Positions 23-50,226 of a stretch of 64,000 nucleotides of DNA are shown piece by piece (positions within the stretch are counted from its first letter, which is position 1; the number at the start of each line of letters is the position of its first letter). The stretch lies in contig JAHFSD010000002.1 in NCBI GenBank assembly GCA_023265925.1, forward strand, positions 2,569-66,568. The letters are read 5' to 3'. Source of the stretch: an archaeon. Lineage in GTDB: Archaea > Nanobdellota > Nanobdellia > Woesearchaeales > GW2011-AR9. Made by a program: the position numbers and the translations under genes. The notes under the pieces are model-generated. The model worked only from the letters and a program-made list of their open reading frames with translations. It ran no database searches and was not told the DNA's origin.

Positions 23-700
23 GTGCTGCAGAACCAGGAACTACCCATGTTTATTTTAAGGCAAATTGAAATCGCCAGGATGTCTTTTATTGTTATCGGC
101 GCTATACTGCTGTTATTTAACAAAAAAATAAATTTTTATAGGGAAAAAATAAAGGGATTAATCCAGGATCGTCCTGAACGTCTGTCATTGATATTACAAA
201 AGGCAGATTTGAACGGCACTAAATACCTTGTAGTTACCAGCGCTATTTTATTGTTATTAACGGTGCACTATCCCTTTGGAATCGCCCAGCAATTTCAGTC
301 AGTGTTCCAAGGAAAGGCATTTTTGTCCGGGCTGGAACCGGTAAGTCTCGCTGATGCGTATCCAGAACTACAAAAGCATTTAAATGCCAACACTGCGGTT
401 CTGACCAGAGAGTACACTTGGGTTATGGCTTTTACCGAGGTTAAGCTTGATAATGTCTATCAGATCTGGAGTTTGCCCCCGTTCCCTGATCTTTCCGGAG
501 AAACTGAAAAAAAGCTGCGTGGTTTGGATGCCATTTTCGTAAGCTTCTGGCTGGAGAGCGCTCGGCCCAACCCCGGAACACAAACGTATCCCCGTTACAT
601 CTTCCATCTAAAACCATTCTTGGAAAAAGCACGTCGGGAAGGCTGGAAGGAAGAAAAAATCAGGGGTTATGGAACTATTTACCTTAAGGAAGAAACATGA
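23..700 (+). CDS. hypothetical protein with predicted TM helices; no recognisable family
   Basis: 225-aa ORF with hydrophobic stretches (MSFIVIGAILLLF, LVVTSAILLLLTV). It sits directly upstream of the radical SAM gene on the same strand. Confidence 0.3.
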   Translation: MLQNQELPMFILRQIEIARMSFIVIGAILLLFNKKINFYREKIKGLIQDRPERLSLILQKADLNGTKYLVVTSAILLLLTVHYPFGIAQQFQSVFQGKAFLSGLEPVSLADAYPELQKHLNANTAVLTREYTWVMAFTEVKLDNVYQIWSLPPFPDLSGETEKKLRGLDAIFVSFWLESARPNPGTQTYPRYIFHLKPFLEKARREGWKEEKIRGYGTIYLKEET

Positions 701-767
701 TTTTGAGAAGAAACATTTAAATATAATTCACCATTTTAATGGAAATAATGAGGAGGATATCGTGTTT

Positions 768-2846
768 ATGAACAAGAAAATTTTCCTGGCTGATCTGACT
801 CATACTGGTAGGGGGATACATGCCTCAACGTTCCCTTTAGGGTTGTCCTATGTGGCCAGTTATGCTAAGAAAGAACTGGGAGATCAGTACGATATTAAAG
901 TTTTCAAATTTCCAGATCATTTGGTTAAAGCAATCATTGATGAATCTCCTGATTTTCTCTGTTTTACTAATTATTGCTGGAATTTGGAATTGAGTTATAA
1001 AATGAGTTCACTGGCCAAGCAGAGAAACCCCAACTTGATTGTCGTTTCCGGGGGACCTAATTTTCCAGTGTTACCTTTAGAAAGACTCCAATTCATGAAA
1101 CAGCGGTCGGGAATCGATTTCTATATCCAGAATGAAGGCGAAATTGGCTTTGTGGAGCTGGTCAGAAAGCTGGGGGAATATAATTTTGATATAGTTGCTT
1201 TAAAACGCAAACGGGAACCAATCATTAATAGCATCTATTTATGTGGTGAAGAACTGGTGGAGGGGCCATTTCAAAGAATCCTTGATCTGAACCTTATCCC
1301 TTCTCCGTATTTAAGCGGAATCATGGACCCTTTTTTTGATATGCCTTTGACACCAATGATTGAAACGACCAGGGGATGCCCATTTACCTGTGCTTTTTGC
1401 GCTGATGGAATAATCTTTAAAAGCAGAGTGATCAGATTTAATCGTGAACGAGCGCTGGACGAGTTGAACTATATTGTAGCGAGAGTGAGAAATATGGATG
1501 AATTGATTATCACTGACCTTAATTTTGGCATGTACAAGGAGGATGTACCCATTGCAGAATATATTGCTGAGATTAAAAGAACGCATAACTGGCCGATTGT
1601 CATCGGTGCATCAACCGGTAAAAATAATAAAGAGCAGGTACTCAAAGTGATCACTATTTTAGGTGGTTCATTAGTGACCGGAGCAGCTATCCAGTCCGCT
1701 GATCCGGAAGTGCTGAAAAACATCAAACGGAACAATATTTCACTCGAAGTTTACCGTGGATTCCTCGAGTTCAGTAACTCTTTCACTAAAGATGCGGTGG
1801 CTTTCACGGAAATTATTCTGGCCTTGCCCGGGGATACCAAAGAGAAACATTTTTATTCCCTGCGCTACGGTATCGACAATGGGGCAAAAATAGTGCGGAT
1901 GTATCAGGCAATGTTATTGTCGGGAACGGAGATGGCTTCCGAGGGCATGCGCCGTGAATTCCAGTACCTGACTAAATTCCGGGTCATTCCTGGGGGAGTG
2001 GGGATTTACCAGTTTGGAGACCAGTGGTACCCCATCGCGGAAGTCGAAGAGATTATTGTCGGCAGCAAAGACCTGCCTTTTGAGGATTATGTATCCTGCC
2101 GGGTGATGAATCTCATTATTGAAACTTATTTCAACAATGCTTTGTTCAGTGAAGTTTTCTCGGCACTTAAAACTCTCCAGGTTTCTGCGTTTGATTGTTT
2201 ACTGTATATCTTTGAGCACCCCGAGTTGTACACACCAACGATGAAGAAAATCTTTAATCGCTTTATCGATGCTACCAGCAAAGACTTGTATAATTCGTAC
2301 GAGGAGGCGATGGCGCATCTCTCCCGGCCGGAAGTGATTGAAAAATATGTCTCGGGAGAACTGGGAATTAATGAATTGCTGGTTCACCGGGCGGAACTGT
2401 ATCAGGAACTGGAAGAAATCTCCACGGTACTGCTGCAGGCGGTGACTGGGTTATTGCAACAACGGGGCTTCTGGAATGACCGAGCTCAATCTTATTTTGA
2501 TCAACTGATTCAATTCATCCTCTGCCGAAAAAAGGCAATTTATCAATACGAGCAGGTCAGCGAGCAGAAATTTAATTATGACTTTAAAGCTCTCGAAGAA
2601 CTGAACTTTGAAATTGATCCCCGCCATCAGGAACTAAGCCCCTGGCCGTTTCGCTTTAAATTTTTCCATGATGAGGGCCAAAAAAGCCATATTCAAAATG
2701 CTCTTCGCCTTTACATTAACACTCCCAGTGGCATTGGGCGATTGCTGCAACGGAGTAACCTTAAAAAGATGTACCGTAATTTTGACTATTGTGCCATAAT
2801 TCAGGAAGCGCCTAAAATGTTACAATCATTAGCTCTGGAAATATAG
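768..2846 (+). CDS. B12-binding (class B) radical SAM enzyme, probable methyltransferase, with a long C-terminal extension
   Basis: N-terminal cobalamin-binding-like region (KKIFLADLTHTG...) followed by a CxxxCxxC radical SAM motif (TTRGCPFTCAFCADG). Start moved to ATG 768, which has GGAGG 11 nt upstream; the track start 669 would overlap the upstream ORF. Confidence 0.8.
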   Translation: MNKKIFLADLTHTGRGIHASTFPLGLSYVASYAKKELGDQYDIKVFKFPDHLVKAIIDESPDFLCFTNYCWNLELSYKMSSLAKQRNPNLIVVSGGPNFPVLPLERLQFMKQRSGIDFYIQNEGEIGFVELVRKLGEYNFDIVALKRKREPIINSIYLCGEELVEGPFQRILDLNLIPSPYLSGIMDPFFDMPLTPMIETTRGCPFTCAFCADGIIFKSRVIRFNRERALDELNYIVARVRNMDELIITDLNFGMYKEDVPIAEYIAEIKRTHNWPIVIGASTGKNNKEQVLKVITILGGSLVTGAAIQSADPEVLKNIKRNNISLEVYRGFLEFSNSFTKDAVAFTEIILALPGDTKEKHFYSLRYGIDNGAKIVRMYQAMLLSGTEMASEGMRREFQYLTKFRVIPGGVGIYQFGDQWYPIAEVEEIIVGSKDLPFEDYVSCRVMNLIIETYFNNALFSEVFSALKTLQVSAFDCLLYIFEHPELYTPTMKKIFNRFIDATSKDLYNSYEEAMAHLSRPEVIEKYVSGELGINELLVHRAELYQELEEISTVLLQAVTGLLQQRGFWNDRAQSYFDQLIQFILCRKKAIYQYEQVSEQKFNYDFKALEELNFEIDPRHQELSPWPFRFKFFHDEGQKSHIQNALRLYINTPSGIGRLLQRSNLKKMYRNFDYCAIIQEAPKMLQSLALEI

Positions 2847-2940
2847 AGAACTGTGCAACTTTGATTACATTTGTGCGCAGTTTTAATCTGGTAAACAGCG
2901 TGTCGAAGTGTGCTATAAGCTACGTAGTTTACCATAACGT
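2847..2940 (+). repeat. structured repeat element, copy 1 (two imperfect hairpins); candidate small RNA or MITE-like repeat
   Basis: Stem 2847-2856/2875-2884 (agaactgtgc / gcgcagtttt; two G-U wobbles) and stem 2890-2901/2922-2933. The element reappears at 45332-45520. Confidence 0.5.
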
Positions 2941-2961: not shown

Positions 2962-3213
2962 ATGGTCAGGAAAGCATTTGTTGATAAAGATATCTGTATT
3001 GGCTGTACTGTCTGTAGTTCTCTCTGCCCGGATGTTTTTACCGTGAAGGAGGATCCCCATTACCAGTATGGGTTTAAGAGCTTCACCAACGATTCTGTCG
3101 ACCAACAGCCCATCGAGAAGCAGGTTCAGGAGGCTATCGACACCTGTCCGGTGCAGTGTATCAGTTGGCGGGAAAAGAAAGAGGTTCAAGAGTCTGCCCT
3201 GGTCGAGCCTTAG
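2962..3213 (+). CDS. 4Fe-4S ferredoxin (single-cluster type)
   Basis: CIGCTVCSSLCP ... CPVQC cysteine pattern in an 83-aa ORF immediately downstream of the radical SAM gene. Confidence 0.75.
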   Translation: MVRKAFVDKDICIGCTVCSSLCPDVFTVKEDPHYQYGFKSFTNDSVDQQPIEKQVQEAIDTCPVQCISWREKKEVQESALVEP

Positions 3214-13826: not shown

Positions 13827-15620
13827 TTAGGCCGTGATCATTTGAGCAGTCTGGTCGACGATGGCCTTTTCCACCTGAATAGCCTGGTCCACACTGATCT
13901 TTCCTCCCTGAACTATCACCTGGACAGCTCCATTGTCCTGCCCATTTCCAGAAACCTCTTTCTTTCCACCAAGGTTACTCTTCTGCCGTGATTCTTTATC
14001 ATAGCGGCGCGCTCCCCTAAACTTGTAATCGCCTTCCAGGTACAGCCGACGATACCCTTCAATAATCTGGTTAGCTTCTTCCAAATCACCTCCAGCATTA
14101 CGAAAATGATGAAAGACAAGCTCTTTGTTTGCCTCAAAAAGCATCTCATTACATTCCTGGTCGGAAAAGCGTGTGAAATTAAATGTTATTAGGTCTGAAT
14201 TCCTGAACTTCTTAAAGAAATCATCCGGTCCTGAGATGATACCTTTCTCTATCGCCTGGTAATATAATGGTGATCCCGGATAAGGAGTAGGCGGTCTGAT
14301 GGTGCGCACCTGATCAAAACGGGTATAGGTTTTAATGGCTTTCACATTCTTCCAAAGAGTTTCTTTTGTATCTTTTTCGAAACCCCAGATAAAGTTAAGT
14401 CCCATGCCGATCTCCACTTTATTTGCTACTTGGAGCGCTTTGAGGTTATCCTCCGCCGTCACCCTCTTGTTCATCTCATCGAGAACAGTTTGATCAACAC
14501 TCTCAAAGCCGATATTGACAAACAAGCATCCGGCCTTTTTTAAGGATAAAGCGACCTCTTCATCGAATAGCGGCGCCCGGGAATTACAGCACCACTTAAC
14601 ATTCAAATTATTTTCTTTGAGCAGCCGTTCAAATTCAAAAACTCTGTTCCGGGGAAAGGTTGATAATTCTTCCAGGAAGTGAAAATAAGTTATACCATAT
14701 TTTGCGGTCAGGTATTTCATCTCTTTAATGATCTCATTCAGGTTGCGCAGGCGCAGGCCTTTCTCGATTCGGTAACAGAAACTGCAGGTATCAGTGCACC
14801 CCCGATTAGCGATGATCGCACAGGTTTTTTCATCACTATCCATCCCCGCCATTCGCCAGCTTTGCGTATAGCTTTCCATGGGAAAGAGGTCCCAGGCAGG
14901 CCAGGGCAGCGAGTCTAAATCACGAAAGACTGGGCGGCGGGGATTTACCTTGACCTGATCACTTTCCCAATAAGTAATTCCTTTGATCTCGCTCAAGCGG
15001 CGCTTGCCCAGTTTGGCATCCATAACTTCAACAATACTGTGCTCAGCTTCTCCCATCAACACCAAATCAGCTCTTGTCCGCTGCAGCATATATTCTGGAA
15101 TGGGCGTTGGACCAGGGCCGCCCAGGAAAAACCAGGCATTTTTTTTGTATTTGTTCACGGATTCGCACAAGCCAACAATGGTTTCTTCAAATCGGGCCGG
15201 CATGAATCCTGCCCCGATAAGGTCATATTCGCTGTTCAAAAGCTTCTTCTCCAGTTGGGCATTAGTGTAATGGAAGACGTCCATGCAGTACACTTCAACG
15301 CTATAGCCTGCTGTTTGCAGCATGGCTGCCAGGTAGCCATAAGCCAGAGGAAAGACATTAAAATCCTGATAAACATCATGGATTATGAGGAGGACGTTTT
15401 TCTTCCAGGGATGGTTGATTTCAATACCTGTTGAAATTGAAGGAATAATTCCCGTTGAAGAACTACCGGCTAAAGAATCGCCTCCTAAAGAATTACCAGT
15501 TAAAGAATCACTTTCTAAAGAATTACCAGCTAAAGAAATACGTGCTGAAGATTGAGCTGAATTTCCATTCATTTCACCATTCCCTCCAACTGTAGGTATA
15601 GGTAAACTATCCACCATCAT
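13827..15620 (-). CDS. B12-binding (class B) radical SAM enzyme with an N-terminal pentapeptide-repeat low-complexity region
   Basis: NRGCTDTCSFCYR (CxxxCxxC) and an upstream B12-binding-like region. The N-terminus is encoded by 15-nt tandem repeats (GNSL/GDSL). Confidence 0.8.
   Translation of the reverse strand: MMVDSLPIPTVGGNGEMNGNSAQSSARISLAGNSLESDSLTGNSLGGDSLAGSSSTGIIPSISTGIEINHPWKKNVLLIIHDVYQDFNVFPLAYGYLAAMLQTAGYSVEVYCMDVFHYTNAQLEKKLLNSEYDLIGAGFMPARFEETIVGLCESVNKYKKNAWFFLGGPGPTPIPEYMLQRTRADLVLMGEAEHSIVEVMDAKLGKRRLSEIKGITYWESDQVKVNPRRPVFRDLDSLPWPAWDLFPMESYTQSWRMAGMDSDEKTCAIIANRGCTDTCSFCYRIEKGLRLRNLNEIIKEMKYLTAKYGITYFHFLEELSTFPRNRVFEFERLLKENNLNVKWCCNSRAPLFDEEVALSLKKAGCLFVNIGFESVDQTVLDEMNKRVTAEDNLKALQVANKVEIGMGLNFIWGFEKDTKETLWKNVKAIKTYTRFDQVRTIRPPTPYPGSPLYYQAIEKGIISGPDDFFKKFRNSDLITFNFTRFSDQECNEMLFEANKELVFHHFRNAGGDLEEANQIIEGYRRLYLEGDYKFRGARRYDKESRQKSNLGGKKEVSGNGQDNGAVQVIVQGGKISVDQAIQVEKAIVDQTAQMITA
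15469..15555 (-). repeat. in-frame 15-nt tandem repeat (about 5 units) encoding xxDSL/GNSL pentapeptide repeats at the 5' end of the radical SAM gene
   Basis: taaagaattaccagY / taaagaatcRc units seen directly in the sequence. Confidence 0.6.
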
Positions 15621-19725: not shown

Positions 19726-19842
19726 CTCTTTTCTTGATTATAGGGATAAGCAGGAGTAAGTAAGAGCGAGGGTTTCCGAAACGTTCCCGGGAAAAAGCAC
19801 TTTTTAAATGTTGTTAATTAAAAATCCAGGTTTACCCGACTT

Positions 19843-20964
19843 TTGCGTTTTATACCAACAGACATAAATAACCATGCCGGAATGATTTTTCTCCCGGGAA
19901 CGCAAAAATGTGACAAAAATGTGAGTTTAATAAGACTTATAAAGTCACTATCAAGTTTTAGAAGTATGCCTTTAATACCAGTTGGTAAGGGAGACTTCCG
20001 CCTCCTGCCACAATTTGCTGAGGGAGATTTTCCGGGTTATGAGTTGTATCTTCCTGAATTTGATGATAAGGTGTATAACTGTCTGGAAGCTCTTCCGGGC
20101 CATATTAAGATAATTTCTATCCATCAGCCGCCTAGTGTGCGTGTCGATGGCCAACTCCATAGGTCAAACATGGTGAACTTTGGAAGAATTGGTGAAGCAA
20201 CTGTCTTCTCTATGAAAAAAATAGTAGAATTATGCCATCAGCGGGGTATCCCTCAAGTGGTGGTTCATGGCGCTTTTTATGATTGCCGAGAGAGGGAGCA
20301 GCAGGAAGCTTTTTCATTGTTTACCAGCAGGTTGAAAAGTTTATCCCATCCAGAAGTGGAATTGTTGTGTGAAAATGATGCTTTGTGGGGACCGGATCAT
20401 TATTCAATCCACTCGCTATTATGTACCATGGAAAATTTTTTGTTGCTAAATAAGCTGATGGATGGAAAAATCAAGATAACGCTCGACATTGAACATTTTT
20501 TGATCACGCACTATTTTACTCGCTTTCTTGGTTCCATCACCGCCAGGGACACGGACTTTTATGTAGGATCTGAGGAAAGAGGAGAGCTTTTACAAAAGGA
20601 TTTTCTCTCTTTTCATGCTCCTCAGGAAAATGTGCTAAAGCAAACTTTATACAGTTCTCTTGGCCAATTCATCAGTTTCTTTAATGACCAGATTGAGATG
20701 GTGCACTTAAATGGCTCTGATTTTCATAATTTTATGTTTGATGCAGGGAAAAAGCTTCCGCTGATCGGAGAGCATTTGCCTCTGGGCTTTGACCAGGGGG
20801 GAGTTAAGGACAGGATTGATTATGGTTTATTGGTAGTGGCACTCCAGAAGCTGCCTCATCATAAAAATATCCCTCTGGTGCTGGAAGTGTGGAGAAAAGA
20901 TCCAGGGGAATTCATTGCAGAAATGCGGCGGTCAAAACAATTTTTAACAAACTATTTAAGCTAG
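19843..20964 (+). CDS. hypothetical protein, possibly xylose-isomerase-like TIM-barrel (sugar phosphate isomerase/epimerase) fold
   Basis: Weak pattern only (IISIHQPP, VVVHGAF, LDIEHF, VHLNGS). Real start may be Met at 19966. Confidence 0.3.
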   Translation: MRFIPTDINNHAGMIFLPGTQKCDKNVSLIRLIKSLSSFRSMPLIPVGKGDFRLLPQFAEGDFPGYELYLPEFDDKVYNCLEALPGHIKIISIHQPPSVRVDGQLHRSNMVNFGRIGEATVFSMKKIVELCHQRGIPQVVVHGAFYDCREREQQEAFSLFTSRLKSLSHPEVELLCENDALWGPDHYSIHSLLCTMENFLLLNKLMDGKIKITLDIEHFLITHYFTRFLGSITARDTDFYVGSEERGELLQKDFLSFHAPQENVLKQTLYSSLGQFISFFNDQIEMVHLNGSDFHNFMFDAGKKLPLIGEHLPLGFDQGGVKDRIDYGLLVVALQKLPHHKNIPLVLEVWRKDPGEFIAEMRRSKQFLTNYLS

Positions 20965-40365: not shown

Positions 40366-42183
40366 TTAAAGCTGATAGAGAATATCTTCCATCGGCTGCC
40401 GGTACAATGGCTCATTCAGCCGTTTCTGGTCTAAGATATGCCCAATCAGGCCAATGCTTCTGGCCAGGGCAAAGAGGCCGTTCATGTATCCTATTTCCAG
40501 AATCTCCTTGATTTCTTCGTTGGCGAATTTTCCAGAACTGACTAAAGCGTCCACAAACAACACACCAATACACCCATCCACATTAAGGATTAAGTTTTCT
40601 GCCTTCTGCAGTGTGATTTTTTCCACTTCCAACGCGTAGTTGAGATACGTTGTTTTGGGAAAATTCTTTTGGGAAAATTGTTTTAGCAATTCCACCCTCT
40701 TATCCGGATTCCTCTTGGATTTAATCCGATGCCCGATACCAGGGATGAGCAGGCCTTTTTTCTTCATCTCTTCCACAAAATTAGTAGGATCCTGCTTTTT
40801 ATCACCAGCCTCATGGAAGTAACGGGCCGCATCATCAATCGCCCCGCCAAATCGTGGCCCGATCGTCAGCAGGCCGCTGCATAAAGCAGAGATAACATCT
40901 TTTCCTGCTCTCGCGGCAACTATCGCATTATGCGCTCCTGAAACAGCGGGACCATGATCGGCACAGAGGAGAATAGATAGCTCCAGGAATTTGGTGAAGT
41001 AGGTCGGCAGTTTTTTCTTGAACCAGAGCAGGGCAATGACCTCCCCTACCGAATAATTCTGTTCAATGATCTCACTCATCGGAATCGTCCCATACGTGGG
41101 CTCTTCACCAATATCTGAAGAAATGGTAGTGGTAAATTGAGTTTGTTTTCGCACCAGCCCTTGCGCGACCGCCTCGTTATAGTCTAATGGCATTCCCGGA
41201 GGATTGATTTCTTCTTTTGCCGGCAGGTTTAATGATAAAAATGTTTTCTTGATGGTCTTTTCCAACTCTTCAAACGAATCGGGGACAATAATCCCTGCTT
41301 CCCTCAGCGCCTTATTTTTCGCTTCCGCGCTTTCTTCTTCCTTTCCGGCCTTGGCGCCAGCATGGCCAAACTGCACTTCCCAGGGAAAAATCGAGGCAGA
41401 GGTTCCTGAAACCAAGATCACCAACGGCTTGGTTAATTTTCCTTCCCGTTTTGCCTTGATGATCTCATATTCGTCCTTTCCACCCAGTTCGCTCAGGGCA
41501 ACCAGCAGCTTAATATCCGGGTTAGCTTCATAGCGCCGCAGGTGATCTAACAACGTTGAGCCGGGATAGGCATCGCCGCCAATGGCAATTCCTTCATTAA
41601 TGCCATCCGTTGTCCTGGCAATGATATTAAACAGCTCATTCATCATCCCGCCAGACTTGGAGACCAAGCCAACACTGCCCGGGCGGTAGAGTTTTGCCTT
41701 CAGGATATTTTCCATCAAACCGCCGGCATGGCCTATCCGGAATTGGCCGGCGATAATGCCGCCCACGGTAGCGGGGCCAATGATCCATTTATTTTTTTGC
41801 CTGGCGAGGGCAATCAGTTCTTTGGCCTGCCGTTCGGGAAGGCCTTCGGCAACGATGACAACGGTGTTGATAGTTGGCGATTCCAGCGCTTCCTTAGAGG
41901 AAGAATAGGCCGAGCGAAAGGAGGCAAAGTTAATTAACACGTCTGCCACAGGGTGTTTTGTGGTTGCATCCTGTAAAGTTGAGTAAATGGGAAGAATTAT
42001 TTCCTTGCTGCCAAAAAAGGCTTTATGGAATCCTTTCCGTCCGGGATGGATTATTCCGGCCAAGCTGGGCTTTGCCTTCCGGCAGATAAAATCATAATCG
42101 AGCATCTGCTGTAGTGGAAGAGGTTTTAGGTTGTAGAAGAACGCTTCCGTGCTCCGGGTGAAGAGGTGGGGGGGGTTGTTCAT
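40366..42183 (-). CDS. aclA: ATP-citrate lyase large subunit AclA (CoA-binding/SucD-like + citrate-synthase-like domains)
   Basis: SVGLVSKSGGMMNELFNII and C-terminal IPGIGHRIKSKRNPDKRVELL (GHR motif as in ACLY). Confidence 0.75.
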   Translation of the reverse strand: MNNPPHLFTRSTEAFFYNLKPLPLQQMLDYDFICRKAKPSLAGIIHPGRKGFHKAFFGSKEIILPIYSTLQDATTKHPVADVLINFASFRSAYSSSKEALESPTINTVVIVAEGLPERQAKELIALARQKNKWIIGPATVGGIIAGQFRIGHAGGLMENILKAKLYRPGSVGLVSKSGGMMNELFNIIARTTDGINEGIAIGGDAYPGSTLLDHLRRYEANPDIKLLVALSELGGKDEYEIIKAKREGKLTKPLVILVSGTSASIFPWEVQFGHAGAKAGKEEESAEAKNKALREAGIIVPDSFEELEKTIKKTFLSLNLPAKEEINPPGMPLDYNEAVAQGLVRKQTQFTTTISSDIGEEPTYGTIPMSEIIEQNYSVGEVIALLWFKKKLPTYFTKFLELSILLCADHGPAVSGAHNAIVAARAGKDVISALCSGLLTIGPRFGGAIDDAARYFHEAGDKKQDPTNFVEEMKKKGLLIPGIGHRIKSKRNPDKRVELLKQFSQKNFPKTTYLNYALEVEKITLQKAENLILNVDGCIGVLFVDALVSSGKFANEEIKEILEIGYMNGLFALARSIGLIGHILDQKRLNEPLYRQPMEDILYQL

Positions 42184-42190
42184 GGGTTTT

Positions 42191-42901
42191 TTATTTTGGT
42201 CGTCGTAGTGTGATCAGCCACTCTTCTGAATTGGATTCAAGATGTTCTACTATTTTCTGGGCAACAAACTGCGGATCCATAAATTCCTCCATTTTTCGTC
42301 CCGGTTGTCTTCGGAAGAGTTCTGTCTTCATCCCGCCCGGATTGAAGCAGGTAACGTTGATTCCCGTTCCTTGCAGTTCTGTTCTCAACGAGCCGCTAAA
42401 ACCAACTAGCGCTGATTTGGAAGAGCCATAGGCAATATGACTGGTTTTGTAATCCAATGCAGAGGTGGAACCAATGTTGATAATATGGCCAGAGCCTTGC
42501 TTTTTCATAACTGTTACTGCTGCCTGTGCACAGAAAATGGGGCCAAAGACGTTTGTTCTATAGGTATCCAGAAGCTCTTCTTCGGCAATTCCTTCCAGCG
42601 GAGTAAGTTTGTGCAAAACACCAGCGTTGTTAATCAGCAGATCCAGCCGACCAAAGCGTTTTACTCCCTGTTCTATGAGCCGATAGCAATTTTCTTTCTT
42701 CTGTACATCCATTACTACTGCTTCTACCTCCGTGAAGTTTTTCATTTTTTCTGCAAAGGCATTTAATTTTTCTTTATCCCTTCCTCCCAGAACAAGGGCA
42801 TAGCCTTTCTTTGCCAGTAATTCAGATAGCGCTGCACCTAGCCCACTATACACCCCTGTTATAGCCGCAACTTTCTTATCTTTCATCATGGTCATTTCCA
42901 A
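42191..42901 (-). CDS. short-chain dehydrogenase/reductase (classical SDR)
   Basis: AAITGVYSGLGAALSELLAKKG; NNAGV; YGSSK. Confidence 0.75.
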   Translation of the reverse strand: MEMTMMKDKKVAAITGVYSGLGAALSELLAKKGYALVLGGRDKEKLNAFAEKMKNFTEVEAVVMDVQKKENCYRLIEQGVKRFGRLDLLINNAGVLHKLTPLEGIAEEELLDTYRTNVFGPIFCAQAAVTVMKKQGSGHIINIGSTSALDYKTSHIAYGSSKSALVGFSGSLRTELQGTGINVTCFNPGGMKTELFRRQPGRKMEEFMDPQFVAQKIVEHLESNSEEWLITLRRPK

Positions 42902-44143
42902 TCACCTCACTTTCTCCATCGCCTTCGGCACCATCATTGTCATCGGCATTTCCGGCCCAGAGACTTCCATCGGAATCCTGAGTTCTAAGCCCGTTCTTTT
43001 CATCAATTCCAAACCCTTCTCCCAATTCGGCCCGCCTCTCCGTACAAAGATAGACACTTTTCCTGCTCGCAACTTTTCCTGATATTCCCGCAGGGCCCTG
43101 ACGACGCCCGTAAACGTCTTCTCCACATCGGTAAAATTGGCAATCGCTCCTGCTATGAACAATATCTTCCCACCGGGAATGCTGGGGCTCCGCGTCATGG
43201 CGTCCAGCACCGTCTTCGCATACTGATACGATTCCTCCGTTGTCGGATTGCCGCTGTATTCCCCATAGTTAGCGATGCTTCCGGCCTGGCCATGATTGGC
43301 AATGGCATCTAAATATATAATGCTGGCTCCGCCTCCAGAAAGAATGTTCCAGATTCTTCCCTGCGGATTGAGCACCGTTAATTTGAGGGAAGCACCACTC
43401 TCCTCATCGAGTTTAGCAATATAATCTTCTTCCGGAAAAGATTTCCGGCCGAATGGCGGGGGAAAGGGAAGATCACCCCATCGTTTCCCATTCCTGAATT
43501 GGGCACAATCGTCCACTTCCGCGACGGTGTCAAGAAGGATGACCTGGCCCTGCTGATCCAGGGTGAAAGGATTAAATTCCAGATAGGTAAAATCCAAATC
43601 CCGATAGAGCTGAAAAATCGCTTTTACAAAGGGCTGGAGTTGCTCGGGAATTCTATTATCTAAATCTACCTCCTCTTGGAGCGTGGGGACGGCGATCTTC
43701 TGTACCTTATCCCACTGCTCTTCAATGTCCATCCCCCCCTGCAGGGAAAAGTGGATGATGTCGTGGTCTCGCTCGGAAGTTATCGCCAGATAATACTCTT
43801 CCTGATGGGAAATGTATGGCTCAATCAGGAAATGGGTAAGCCTGTCCGTCACCGTACCGATAGTTACTTCCTTATTGTGGTATTCTTTCAGCCACCGTAC
43901 TGCTTCCTCCCATCCTGCCTCCAGCAGCACCAAGCCCAGCTTTTTCCTCTTCCCGAAAAGCTGATCAGGCTTAACCACCAATTTCGTCCTGGAAAGCCAG
44001 GGATAGTGCTGGGGAAGGTTTTCCAAGCTTGTTTCAGGACCGATTAAAACAGCGTTATTGATAAGATTAACCTTTCCATATTGTAGGATATTATCTGCTA
44101 TGATTCGTTTAGCATCAAATTCACGTATCTTACGGCGTCCCAT
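42902..44143 (-). CDS. aclB: ATP-citrate lyase small subunit AclB (ATP-grasp/SucC-like)
   Basis: N-terminal REFDAKRIIADN; 413 aa, matching AclB architecture. Confidence 0.7.
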   Translation of the reverse strand: MGRRKIREFDAKRIIADNILQYGKVNLINNAVLIGPETSLENLPQHYPWLSRTKLVVKPDQLFGKRKKLGLVLLEAGWEEAVRWLKEYHNKEVTIGTVTDRLTHFLIEPYISHQEEYYLAITSERDHDIIHFSLQGGMDIEEQWDKVQKIAVPTLQEEVDLDNRIPEQLQPFVKAIFQLYRDLDFTYLEFNPFTLDQQGQVILLDTVAEVDDCAQFRNGKRWGDLPFPPPFGRKSFPEEDYIAKLDEESGASLKLTVLNPQGRIWNILSGGGASIIYLDAIANHGQAGSIANYGEYSGNPTTEESYQYAKTVLDAMTRSPSIPGGKILFIAGAIANFTDVEKTFTGVVRALREYQEKLRAGKVSIFVRRGGPNWEKGLELMKRTGLELRIPMEVSGPEMPMTMMVPKAMEKVR

Positions 44144-45286: not shown

Positions 45287-45309
45287 CCCCCTGGCAAACT
45301 CTGTGGAAA
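45287..45309 (+). repeat. 23-bp direct repeat, left copy (ccccctggcaaactctgtggaaa)
   Basis: Identical 23-mer recurs at 45668-45690. Confidence 0.7.
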
Positions 45310-45331
45310 GGAAGCGCTTCTGGTGGTATAG

Positions 45332-45520
45332 AGAACTGCGCAATTTAGATCACATTTGTGCGCAGTTCTAATCTGGTAAACTGCGTGTCGAAGTCTACAC
45401 TTTTGCGTTTCTGAGAGAATCAATCGCCGCAAAAGTGTAGATTACGAGGCTTTTGCCTAATCAGATATAAAACGCAAAAGTCGAGGAAGTGTGACATAAG
45501 CTACGCAGTTTACCATAGCA
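45332..45520 (+). repeat. structured repeat element, copy 2 (same two hairpins as 2847-2940, perfect stems, plus a nested ~100-nt insertion carrying a 13-bp perfect hairpin at 45395-45440)
   Basis: Stems 45332-45341/45360-45369 and 45375-45386/45503-45514. Inserted hairpin ctacacttttgcg/cgcaaaagtgtag. Confidence 0.55.
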
Positions 45521-45667: not shown

Positions 45668-45690
45668 CCCCCTGGCAAACTCTGTGGAAA
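45668..45690 (+). repeat. 23-bp direct repeat, right copy
   Basis: Identical to 45287-45309; 381 bp apart. Confidence 0.7.
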
Positions 45691-45925
45691 AGAGCGTTTT
45701 ACTAACCCAAACAGAAACTATTCCAGTGGTGGAGTGCGCCCCTAAAGGTAGACAAATAGTTAAGATTCAACTTTTGCGGTTTTTAGCATAGCCCACCTGG
45801 TTGGTGCTGGGAAGAACAGATGTGCAGCTGACTTTGAAAAGGCAGTTGGATGGGTTTGTTCGGTAAGCCAAGAAAACGTTTCCTTATTTCCGCCAACAAT
45901 CTTTTTATAGTAACCTCGTTTTAAG

Positions 45926-49590: not shown

Positions 49591-49988
49591 GCCTTGAGAA
49601 ATATTCTTTTATATTTAAAGGTTGGTGACGATAGATTCTCCCTAATCATCGGCATAGGCCTGTTTAATCGTTGTAAGTAGTTGAAATTTCTTTCCTAATT
49701 TTAATTTTATCTTTGCCCTTTCAGCTGCTCTTACACTTTCGGCAGATAAAGCGTTGCTTTTTACCACATTGGTTATAGCGGAATCCCGCTCTCACAATAT
49801 TCTCAAACGATTTACAAAAGATACAGGGCGTTTTCATATCCATCACCAGGTTAAAGAAAAGAAGTACTTATATCTAAATATGCTTAAGATTAAACGGTGT
49901 CACTCCGGCGCAATCTTTATAAACCACCCCCTGTCCCTAGCACAAATCCGTTATCACACTGGCCAGCAGGACTGGTTTATTGATATAG

Positions 49989-50076
49989 AGAATTCCGCTA
50001 ATTGAGTGACATATTGGCGGAATTCTTATATAGTCAATTCCGAAAAGGATGTAACCTAATAATCGGAATTGACTAT
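49989..50076 (+). other. two adjacent perfect hairpins (10-bp and 14-bp stems, 18-19-nt loops) sharing a gaattcc core; candidate sRNA/regulatory element about 150 nt upstream of rpl3
   Basis: 49989-49998/50017-50026 and 50030-50043/50063-50076. Confidence 0.4.
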
Positions 50077-50226
50077 ACCGGTGAGCTGCCTGCAAAGGCA
50101 ACCATCCTTGGTGTTCTGGGATGGAAGCCAGATAAAGGCAATTTGTACGAGTACCGTATCAATTGGCTTGGGCAACGAGATAAATATAGATGAGATAATT
50201 ATAGTATAGAATAGAGTATTATACAA

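Follow-up and report, generated by a model that had tools for sequence, protein, structure and literature searches.

The stretch of DNA analysed here, 64 kb in length and referred to below as the window, encodes an archaeal AglB/STT3 and an archaeal ribosomal-protein operon, and its L3 protein is nearest (60–72% identity) to proteins named Woesearchaeota, Nanoarchaeia and Nanoarchaeota. Close to one end, a gene for a B12-binding radical-SAM (rSAM) protein is followed by a gene for a single-cluster 4Fe-4S ferredoxin, and between the two lies a short repeated element with two hairpins (copy 1; Table 1), whose letters run TATAGAG...TTTACCATA or, in a longer reading, TATAGAGAACTGTGCA...TGCGCAGTTTTAATCTGGTAAACAGCGT...ACGTAGTTTACCATA. 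An initial annotation, made from the letters of the window, had described a discrete element here and at a second place. The element is real at both places, but copy 1 extends from 2842 to 2936 rather than from 2847 to 2940, with a core (2844–2934) set between TA dinucleotides at 2842–2843 and 2935–2936 that we presume to be a target-site duplication.

Table 1. Positions of the repeat copies, their hairpins and associated features in the window.
Feature	Position	Strand	Remarks
B12-binding radical-SAM (rSAM) gene	669..2846	+	B12-binding and Radical_SAM domains
Putative MITE copy 1, subfamily A	2842..2936	+	91 bits; ends set where 19–21 copies cease aligning
Hairpin 1 of copy 1	2847..2884	+	11-bp stem, 2847–2857 with 2874–2884
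Hairpin 2 of copy 1	2890..2933	+	12-position stem, 2890–2901 with 2922–2933
Putative ancestral rSAM stop TAA	2940..2942	+	from the sequence and the TA duplication seen at L004/L037
Single-cluster 4Fe-4S ferredoxin gene	2962..3213	+	start 25 nt 3' of copy 1
Stand-alone relative of the second mini-element family	19835..19913	+	ACTTTTGCG termini
Putative MITE copy 2, subfamily A	45327..45517	+	perfect stems; TA at 45327–45328 and 45516–45517
Nested 91-nt element, second mini-element family	45395..45485	+	in the loop of copy 2 hairpin 2; terminal inverted repeat CTACACTTTTGCG / CTCGACTTTTGCG
Putative MITE copy 3, subfamily C, diverged	49984..50077	+	profile search; 92 bits; stems AGAATTCCGC and TAGTCAATTCCG

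The repeat and its gene context

Copy 1 is closely interwoven with the genes on either side. As initially noted, the element supplies the stop codon of the rSAM gene: the open reading frame ends in a TAG (2844–2846) that forms the first three bases of the terminal repeat of copy 1, within the conserved TATAG terminus. The element was also correctly placed upstream of the ferredoxin gene, at a distance from the ATG at 2962 that is 25 nt and not 20 nt, and an AGGAG motif 8 nt 5' of this ATG is retained, with the ATG itself, just downstream of the copy. If a TA duplication is assumed, removal of the core and one TA from copy 1 gives the pre-insertion sequence ...CTG GAA ATA ACG TAA. On this reconstruction, copy 1 would have entered the TA of the penultimate rSAM codon (ATA), two codons ahead of the original stop; the terminal TAG of the element would have taken the place of the last rSAM codon (ACG) and the original TAA, shortening the protein by one residue and leaving that TAA stranded downstream. 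The 93-nt double hairpin is probably co-transcribed with the rSAM and ferredoxin genes between which it lies, and any effect that it has on the RNA would be a by-product rather than the reason why the element exists.

Hairpin 1 of copy 1 contains two G·U wobbles (2848 G·T 2883 and 2854 T·G 2877) at positions where copy 2 has G-C and C-G. The initial annotation had described these pairs accurately and had taken them for compensatory changes, but they are one-sided C-to-T transitions rather than compensatory double substitutions. It had made no mention of two features of hairpin 2, an A·A mismatch (2897/2926) and a third C-to-T wobble, the G·U pair at 2898/2925.

Further copies in the window

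The 20-mer GGTAAACWGCGTGTCGAAGT, taken from the central part of the element, has exactly two occurrences in the window, where zero are expected (none in 100 shuffles). Copies 1 and 2 were aligned by a repeat finder at 88% identity across 76 nt, and both are predicted to fold as two hairpins. In copy 2, hairpin 1 occupies 45332–45369 and the arms of hairpin 2 lie at 45375–45386 and 45503–45514. The length of this copy, 191 nt, is reached only because an unrelated 91-nt inverted-repeat element has been inserted, a member of a second mini-element family that also has a stand-alone relative in the window (Table 1); the insert is bordered by a GAAGT duplication (45390–45394 and 45486–45490), and the corresponding loop of copy 1 is uninterrupted. 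Both copies first reported are genuine, but a third, diverged copy at 49984–50077 had been overlooked, as had the part played by the nested insert in the length of copy 2. Copy 3 is flanked by TA at 49984–49985 and 50076–50077 and is inserted in the conserved leader of the L3 ribosomal-protein operon. In total, the window holds five mini-elements in 64 kb, or about 78 per Mb.

Family size, subfamilies and hosts

Searches of the window and of further loci with a profile, a covariance model and a hairpin-doublet pattern recovered 27 copies, which fall into four subfamilies, occupy at least 10 contigs, lie in unrelated flanks and all come from Woesearchaeota-like MAGs and metagenome contigs. Subfamily B is represented by 12 copies (stem core AATTGC(G)), subfamily A by 8 (AACTGCG), subfamily D by 6 (GGTTTGA / CTTTGAA) and subfamily C by a single copy (AATTCCG); besides these 27, one solo hairpin was found (n=1; L006 13069–13113). 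The family has sharp boundaries, TATAG at its left end and ATA at its right, beyond which the flanks cannot be aligned. A repeat family with two conserved hairpins, as initially proposed, is therefore well founded, with true double changes between subfamilies. The initial annotation had also reckoned with the chance that only its two copies exist; there are 27, and its RNA reading, considered below, fails on other grounds.

An exact-pattern scan of one genome per species located the central 22-mer in 3 archaeal MAGs, and a degenerate pattern matched eleven further places in JGI metagenome contigs; a degenerate-pattern scan of viral contigs gave no match to the core. The family is lineage-restricted as judged by the covariance model, which detected nothing in 106 kb of sequence from further Woesearchaeota relatives and IS630-bearing contigs. 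When strain variants of the window's own loci were sought by exact protein match, the only contigs recovered (L017 and L018) were 100% identical and hence showed no polymorphism. We found no prior description of this two-hairpin repeat family in the searchable literature.

One MAG with the element is labelled 'Methanosarcinales', which would have implied transfer across phyla. This reading was rejected, since the MAG too is a Woesearchaeote: the MetK that it encodes, of bacterial type, shares 97% identity with the MetK of JACPTG01, a Woesearchaeota MAG, and the named relatives of this MetK are without exception Woesearchaeota or Nanoarchaeota.

Stem conservation and strand symmetry

RNAalifold, applied to 19 full-length copies, recovered two stems with 21 pairs, 6 of which have changed on both sides. 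Some 98% of cells are paired, compared with 30–48% in slid-partner controls, and no shuffle matched either the observed pairing or the observed covariation: the palindromes are real and maintained. Conservation is far higher in the stems and the TCTAATCT linker than in the loops, and an invariant TA lies centrally, in the linker.

The initial annotation had attributed such hairpins to a structured RNA rather than a DNA palindrome, that is, to a gene or cis-element read from the plus strand whose hairpins are kept for an RNA function. The double changes at 6/21 pairs, the nearly complete pairing and the conservation of stems and linker above the loops are all as that reading would have them, as is the very probable location of copies 1 (intercistronic) and 3 (5' leader) within transcripts. 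Copy 1 also folds better on the plus strand (−27.9 kcal/mol) than on the minus strand (−19.1 kcal/mol), but it is an outlier in this respect, the mean minimum free energy of the family being near −32 kcal/mol for either strand, and G·U and A·C mismatches stand at 5:5 over the 19 aligned copies. Because every transition in a Watson-Crick pair creates a wobble on either the plus or the minus strand, the presence of two or three on the same strand of a single copy carries no weight. Orientation relative to neighbouring genes is likewise mixed: among copies between co-directional genes, 7/11 are co-oriented and 4/11 opposed, a split that is not significant and is no proof of randomness either. The flanks being unrelated, there is no conserved upstream promoter, and the Rfam 15 covariance models gave no match over the window at the gathering threshold, the best matches of a permissive search reaching 17 bits against cut-offs of 50–65.

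The manner in which the stems vary bears on the same question. Alignment pairs 12:43 and 59:91 switch jointly, as do 14:41 and 61:89, and both hairpins alter their stem sequence in concert between subfamilies. The stems are thus kept as sequence, which fits a protein reading one motif at four places rather than two independent RNA helices each preserving a fold. Given in addition that copies are truncated, chimeric or split by insertions of 49 nt, 91 nt and 1.1 kb, and that the presence or absence of a copy is accompanied by a TA duplication (see below), we regard a plus-strand structured RNA as extremely unlikely.

Two further candidates were also rejected. An H/ACA-like two-hairpin match (17.5 bits, cut-off 65) is without a pseudouridylation pocket or K-turn, its stems are kept as sequence and the ACA/ANA spacing is absent. 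An operator or regulon does not agree with unrelated neighbour genes, nor with the conservation of loops and of whole 95-nt units.

Hairpin 2 of subfamily C is by itself a perfect TA-TAG...CTA-TA unit, and its sequence suggests that the doublet originated through fusion of two minimal hairpin units at a TA.

Evidence for mobility

A filled and an empty site were found in two genomes, CAZDCW01 (L004) and JACPTG01 (L037), whose MetK proteins are 97% identical and whose MetK / MazE-like / ROK neighbourhoods are collinear. The site in L004 holds a subfamily-A copy and reads AAAAGT-TA-[TGGTAAAC...TTCTCTA]-TA-TTAAGT, with 93 nt inside, and that in L037 reads AAAAGT-TA-TTAAGT, the rest of the intergenic region being about 95% identical. 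Once the 93-nt core and one TA are taken away, L004 is collinear with L037, save for a separate 20-nt local duplication 10 nt off. In the case of copy 3, the L3-operon leader is alignable and uninterrupted in four other Woesearchaeota genomes, all four without the element, and removal of the core and one TA leaves a spacer of 12 nt, equal to that of the most similar relative (L020).

The 20-nt duplication complicates the alignment of L004 with L037, which are the sole filled/empty pair between close relatives. Formally, a TA duplication has the same outcome as insertion beside a TA of an element whose own terminal bases are TA.

The element has no coding capacity: all reading frames of the 93-nt core are broken, and there is no ORF. 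Its imperfect terminal inverted repeats start with TAG (5'-TAGAGAAYTGCGC... / ...GCARTTTACSA-3'), and the element-end sequences of the family are TAGAGAAYTGCGC, TAGAGAATTCCGC and TAGAGAGAGGTTTGA. When the left end is compared with the reverse-complemented right end, 13/20 positions match in subfamily A, 15/20 in B and 16/20 in C, rising to about 20/24 in D with a 2-nt offset allowed. Because this similarity extends over 20–27 nt, the element possesses terminal inverted repeats besides its local hairpins.

Individual copies record a varied subsequent history. A B copy and a D copy abut in L012 and L015 with a single TA in common, the copy at L003 6512–6595 is truncated, and chimeric A/B copies in L010 and L006 account for the C·A mismatches. 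Nested insertions are found in the window (45395–45485; 91 nt), in L001 (2946–2994; a 49-nt double hairpin) and in L013 (a 1.1-kb IS). The element is a multi-copy, dispersed family; related genomes differ by the presence or absence of the entire two-hairpin doublet, and the copies decay, recombine and receive nested insertions.

The same observations help to decide whether the repeats could be REP/REPIN-like or PATE-like, with a Y1 HUH transposase (RAYT or IS200/IS605 TnpA) moving them in the form of single-stranded DNA hairpins. Such a reading implies insertion beside a specific short target without duplication. It would accommodate a doublet of two similar inverted hairpins with one recognition motif in common, the solo hairpin in L006 and a short conserved tag at each hairpin foot, but that tag is TATNG, neither the GTAG nor the CGTC tag of the REP superfamilies (PMC3733652). 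The TA at both ends could in principle be target plus element end and not a duplication, yet the empty site has one TA where the filled site has two, and the ends, unlike those of IS200/IS605, are inverted repeats proper, up to about 27 nt in length. Moreover, a survey of complete genomes found Archaea with only IS200-type Y1 enzymes and no REP-associated classes (PMC6006769), and the sole transposase that we found associated with a copy is of the IS630 type, making movement by a Y1 enzyme very unlikely.

A probable link to IS630-family transposases

The transposase in question lies in L013, where a 1.1-kb IS occupies a TA in the hairpin-2 loop of a subfamily-B copy, with the TA duplicated. 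This IS encodes HTH_33 and DDE_3 domains, matches the NCBIfam IS630-family model NF033545 in two fragments (42.9 and 82.9 bits) and has the ends TA-TAGCTTAGG... and ...CATACTA-TA. Its relatives all have TATAG...CTATA ends in varying flanks; the matches are mostly unnamed, the two named ones being a Woesearchaeota archaeon and a Brocadiales bacterium. One IS end from this group, TATAGTAAATAACTTTAATT, and the right end of subfamily B, TATCGTAAATTGCGGTAATT, match at 15/20 positions and at 11/15 past the TATNG, a level attained by 0.15% of 1936 background TATNG sites in these genomes. Other ends match at 8–9/15, with two further ends of the repeat at 9/15 (3% of background).

Insertion at TA with TA duplication is the hallmark of the IS630/Tc1/mariner superfamily. 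The occurrence of IS630 elements in archaea has been documented (PMC13343696). No full-length or kilobase-scale element with TAGAGAAYTGCGC ends was present in the 330 kb searched. Neither the window nor the other host loci examined encode an IS630 transposase, L013 being the only locus that does, and an all-against-all comparison of the ORFs near copies gave no recurrent transposase.

A probable TA-duplicating MITE of Woesearchaeota-type archaea

We conclude that the element is very probably a TA-duplicating MITE, that is, a non-autonomous DNA transposon of Woesearchaeota-type DPANN archaea. Copies would insert at TA dinucleotides and duplicate the TA, and would be mobilised in trans by a DDE transposase. 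That this enzyme belongs to the IS630 family (Tc1/mariner superfamily) seems likely to us on three grounds: duplication of TA, termini that begin with TAG and a modest resemblance between ends. In addition, an insertion sequence of the IS630 family is present in at least one of the host loci (L013), and the insertion sequences of this family use TA and are bounded by TA-TAG...CTA-TA. The conserved stems may be the recognition sequence of the transposase, present four times, twice per end and inverted, and a recognition sequence in this four-fold form would explain why both hairpins change jointly between subfamilies. The four-fold motif may exist because the transposase binds at four sites, because hairpin DNA is required or because the palindromes have been homogenised.

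A plain MITE requires outer repeats only, and the concerted change of four arms and the conservation of stems and linker go beyond this simplest model; both would also fit a selected structure. Four arms that track one another, an invariant TA in the linker and solo hairpins are the basis for considering the design non-incidental. It is nevertheless improbable that the element transposes by a hairpin-dependent or four-site synaptic route, undescribed for IS630-type elements, or that its hairpins are a selected RNA or DNA module. An intercistronic or leader element in ultra-compact DPANN genomes would be an example of such a module.

A further reading accepts an origin as a MITE and holds that the copies within transcripts were co-opted, for example as mRNA-stabilising, processing or insulating elements between genes. 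Roles of this kind have been proposed for bacterial REP/BIME and Correia elements. Many copies lie 2–40 nt from gene ends or between co-directional genes (copy 1 and those in L006, L009, L008 and L012), as co-option would predict, but short-spacer insertions are expected anyway in a nearly all-coding genome, and the orientation of the copies is inconsistent. Likewise, the intact stems of most copies, while compatible with a function in the host, are equally well explained by selection for transposability. Copy 3 has remained unpurged inside a conserved operon leader, which argues for co-option; on balance, we think it unlikely.

The MITE reading has consequences for how these genomes are understood and annotated. 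DPANN genomes are among the smallest and most gene-dense cellular genomes, and active mobile DNA within them is informative on genome change. The family has moved recently, between genomes with 97% identical MetK, and it has inserted into the conserved leader that precedes the main ribosomal-protein operon and, by donating the rSAM stop, appears to have altered where a gene ends. For annotators, this means that conserved, covarying hairpins in a repeated element are not evidence for an RNA gene. The covariance model of the family could be used to mask copies and to track strain-level variation in Woesearchaeota metagenomes.

Comparison with known systems

Correia elements (CREE/NEMIS) duplicate TA, have termini starting with TATAG, are about 100–155 bp long and are often co-transcribed with neighbouring genes. 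To our knowledge, they have no cognate transposase and are confined to Neisseria. Their size and their assignment to the MITE class have been described (PMC3184786). In size, TA duplication and TATAG termini they are a near analogue of the element described here, but their sequence is unrelated past the TATAG, they are bacterial, their inverted repeat is single and long (26 bp), and they contain promoters as well as an IHF site.

In haloarchaea, the IS200/IS605-derived, palindrome-associated PATEs are likewise short, non-coding archaeal elements that carry a hairpin close to either terminus. IS200/IS605 derivatives lack inverted repeats at their ends and insert without a duplication. Our element also has subterminal hairpins but differs from PATEs in its inverted-repeat ends and duplicated TA. 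REPINs and BIMEs with their RAYT enzymes resemble it as intergenic doublets of similar, inverted palindromic units that also occur as singlet hairpins. In contrast to the TA duplication and TAG termini seen here, however, REPINs make no target duplication, carry GTAG/CGTC tags and depend on Y1 HUH enzyme classes not found in Archaea (PMC6006769).

Among archaeal elements, the Sulfolobus MITEs (SM1-4, SMN1 and SM3A) are non-autonomous and mobilised in trans by resident IS transposases (PMC3718332). They differ from the present family in their crenarchaeotal hosts, in sequence, in length (164–320 bp for those cited) and in being without the double-hairpin design. In a 2024 census, one Woesearchaeal genome, with 105 MITEs per Mb, ranks with the most MITE-dense of archaea (PMC11602168); the MITE richness of some Woesearchaeal genomes being already published, the advance made here is descriptive.

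The closest kind are the IS630/Tc1-mariner MITEs, such as Stowaway in plants and bacterial IS630-type elements, e.g. MITEEc1. Unlike these, the element described here has a DPANN archaeal host, its terminal repeats are recopied internally in inverted orientation to give two local hairpins and four co-varying core motifs, and a matching autonomous parent was not found in the 330 kb searched. It resembles them in being short, non-coding, multi-copy and mainly intergenic, in its terminal inverted repeats, TA duplication and hairpin folding, and probably in having a related autonomous family in the same genomes. The element would then be of a fairly ordinary kind in an unusual host, with the four-fold motif as the only part that offers some potential for novelty.

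A conserved leader of the L3-operon

The L3-L4-L23-L2 ribosomal-protein operon is preceded by a conserved leader, which we consider a candidate for a ribosomal-protein leader RNA in Woesearchaeota. Five sequences were compared: the window, the corresponding loci of relatives L019 (9790-10000) and L020 (9785-10000), and those of L021 and L022. The hairpin covaries among them (CCAG/CTGG, TCAG/CTGA, CCCTG/CAGGG), the nested domain takes the form GCCUG..GGC[CAUCC..GGAUG]GCC..UAGGC, and RNAalifold gave 24 pairs across the five sequences, with double changes in six. No match to the leader was found in Rfam. In the window, the two parts of the leader are separated by inserted copy 3 of the MITE, the ~95-nt two-hairpin, TA-duplicating element.

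Additional mini-elements and insertions

A second mini-element family in the window carries terminal inverted repeats CT(A/C)(C/G)ACTTTTGCG, and the ACTTTTGCG motif occurs five times there against 0.6 expected. The 5-bp duplication at its nested copy implies a transposase type other than that of the MITE.

Coordinates of the leader, mini-elements and insertion sequence
Feature	Location	Description
L3-operon leader	window 49918-50226	TTTATAAA box, then covarying hairpin, then nested domain
Second-family mini-element	window 19835-19913	stand-alone copy
Second-family mini-element	window 45395-45485	nested in MITE copy 2; 5-bp GAAGT duplication
49-nt double hairpin	L001 2946-2994	CCCAAATCAC..GTGATTGGG + CCCAATTAAGC..TTAATTTGGG
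89-nt double-hairpin element	L006 6818-6906	TATAAT...ATTATA ends
Solo hairpin	L006 13069-13113	ATAGCAATTCGCA...TGCGAATTGCTA
IS630-family insertion sequence	L013 464-1569	1.1 kb; inside subfamily-B MITE; TA duplication

MITE copy 2, together with ~150 nt of non-coding DNA, is flanked by a 26-nt direct repeat, CCCCCTGGCAAACTCTGTGGAAAGGA (45287-45312 and 45668-45693; 96% identical), each unit of which would, within a short ORF, code for PPGKLCGKE; the pair may stem from a local duplication or be what is left of a gene.

Elsewhere, the double hairpin of contig L001 is a third kind of mini-element, interrupting the hairpin 2 5′ arm of a subfamily-B MITE copy with no detectable duplication flanking the insert. 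On contig L006, the 89-nt element has unrelated stems, and the solo hairpin, immediately 5′ of a gene start, is similar to the MITE's first half. Frameshifts or decay have left the L013 insertion sequence with a transposase in three separate ORFs; close relatives of the element lie mostly on ~1.1 kb contigs, as expected of a multi-copy insertion sequence that breaks assemblies.

Beside a site that is filled by a MITE in L004 and empty in L037, comparison of L004 3045-3075 with L037 8112-8128 shows a 20-nt local duplication, GGCCGTGTTATTTAGTTTAT, in the filled allele only. It lies 10 nt away from the insertion site and may have been left by repair or have arisen independently. The MAG containing L001 and L004 (CAZDCW010000001.1 and CAZDCW010000003.1) is titled 'uncultured Methanosarcinales archaeon'; its MetK is of bacterial type and shares 97% identity with the MetK of Woesearchaeota MAG JACPTG01, and the Methanosarcinales label is very probably wrong.

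Other genes in the window

A long minus-strand ORF (13827-15620) contains a short in-frame periodic repeat (15458-15547) of 15- and 30-nt, AAAGAATTACCAGCT-like units. Two neighbouring genes (40366-44143) encode ATP-citrate lyase subunits, with Citrate_bind/ATP-grasp followed by CoA-ligase/citrate-synthase domains, an unusual pair of metabolic genes for a DPANN-type genome.
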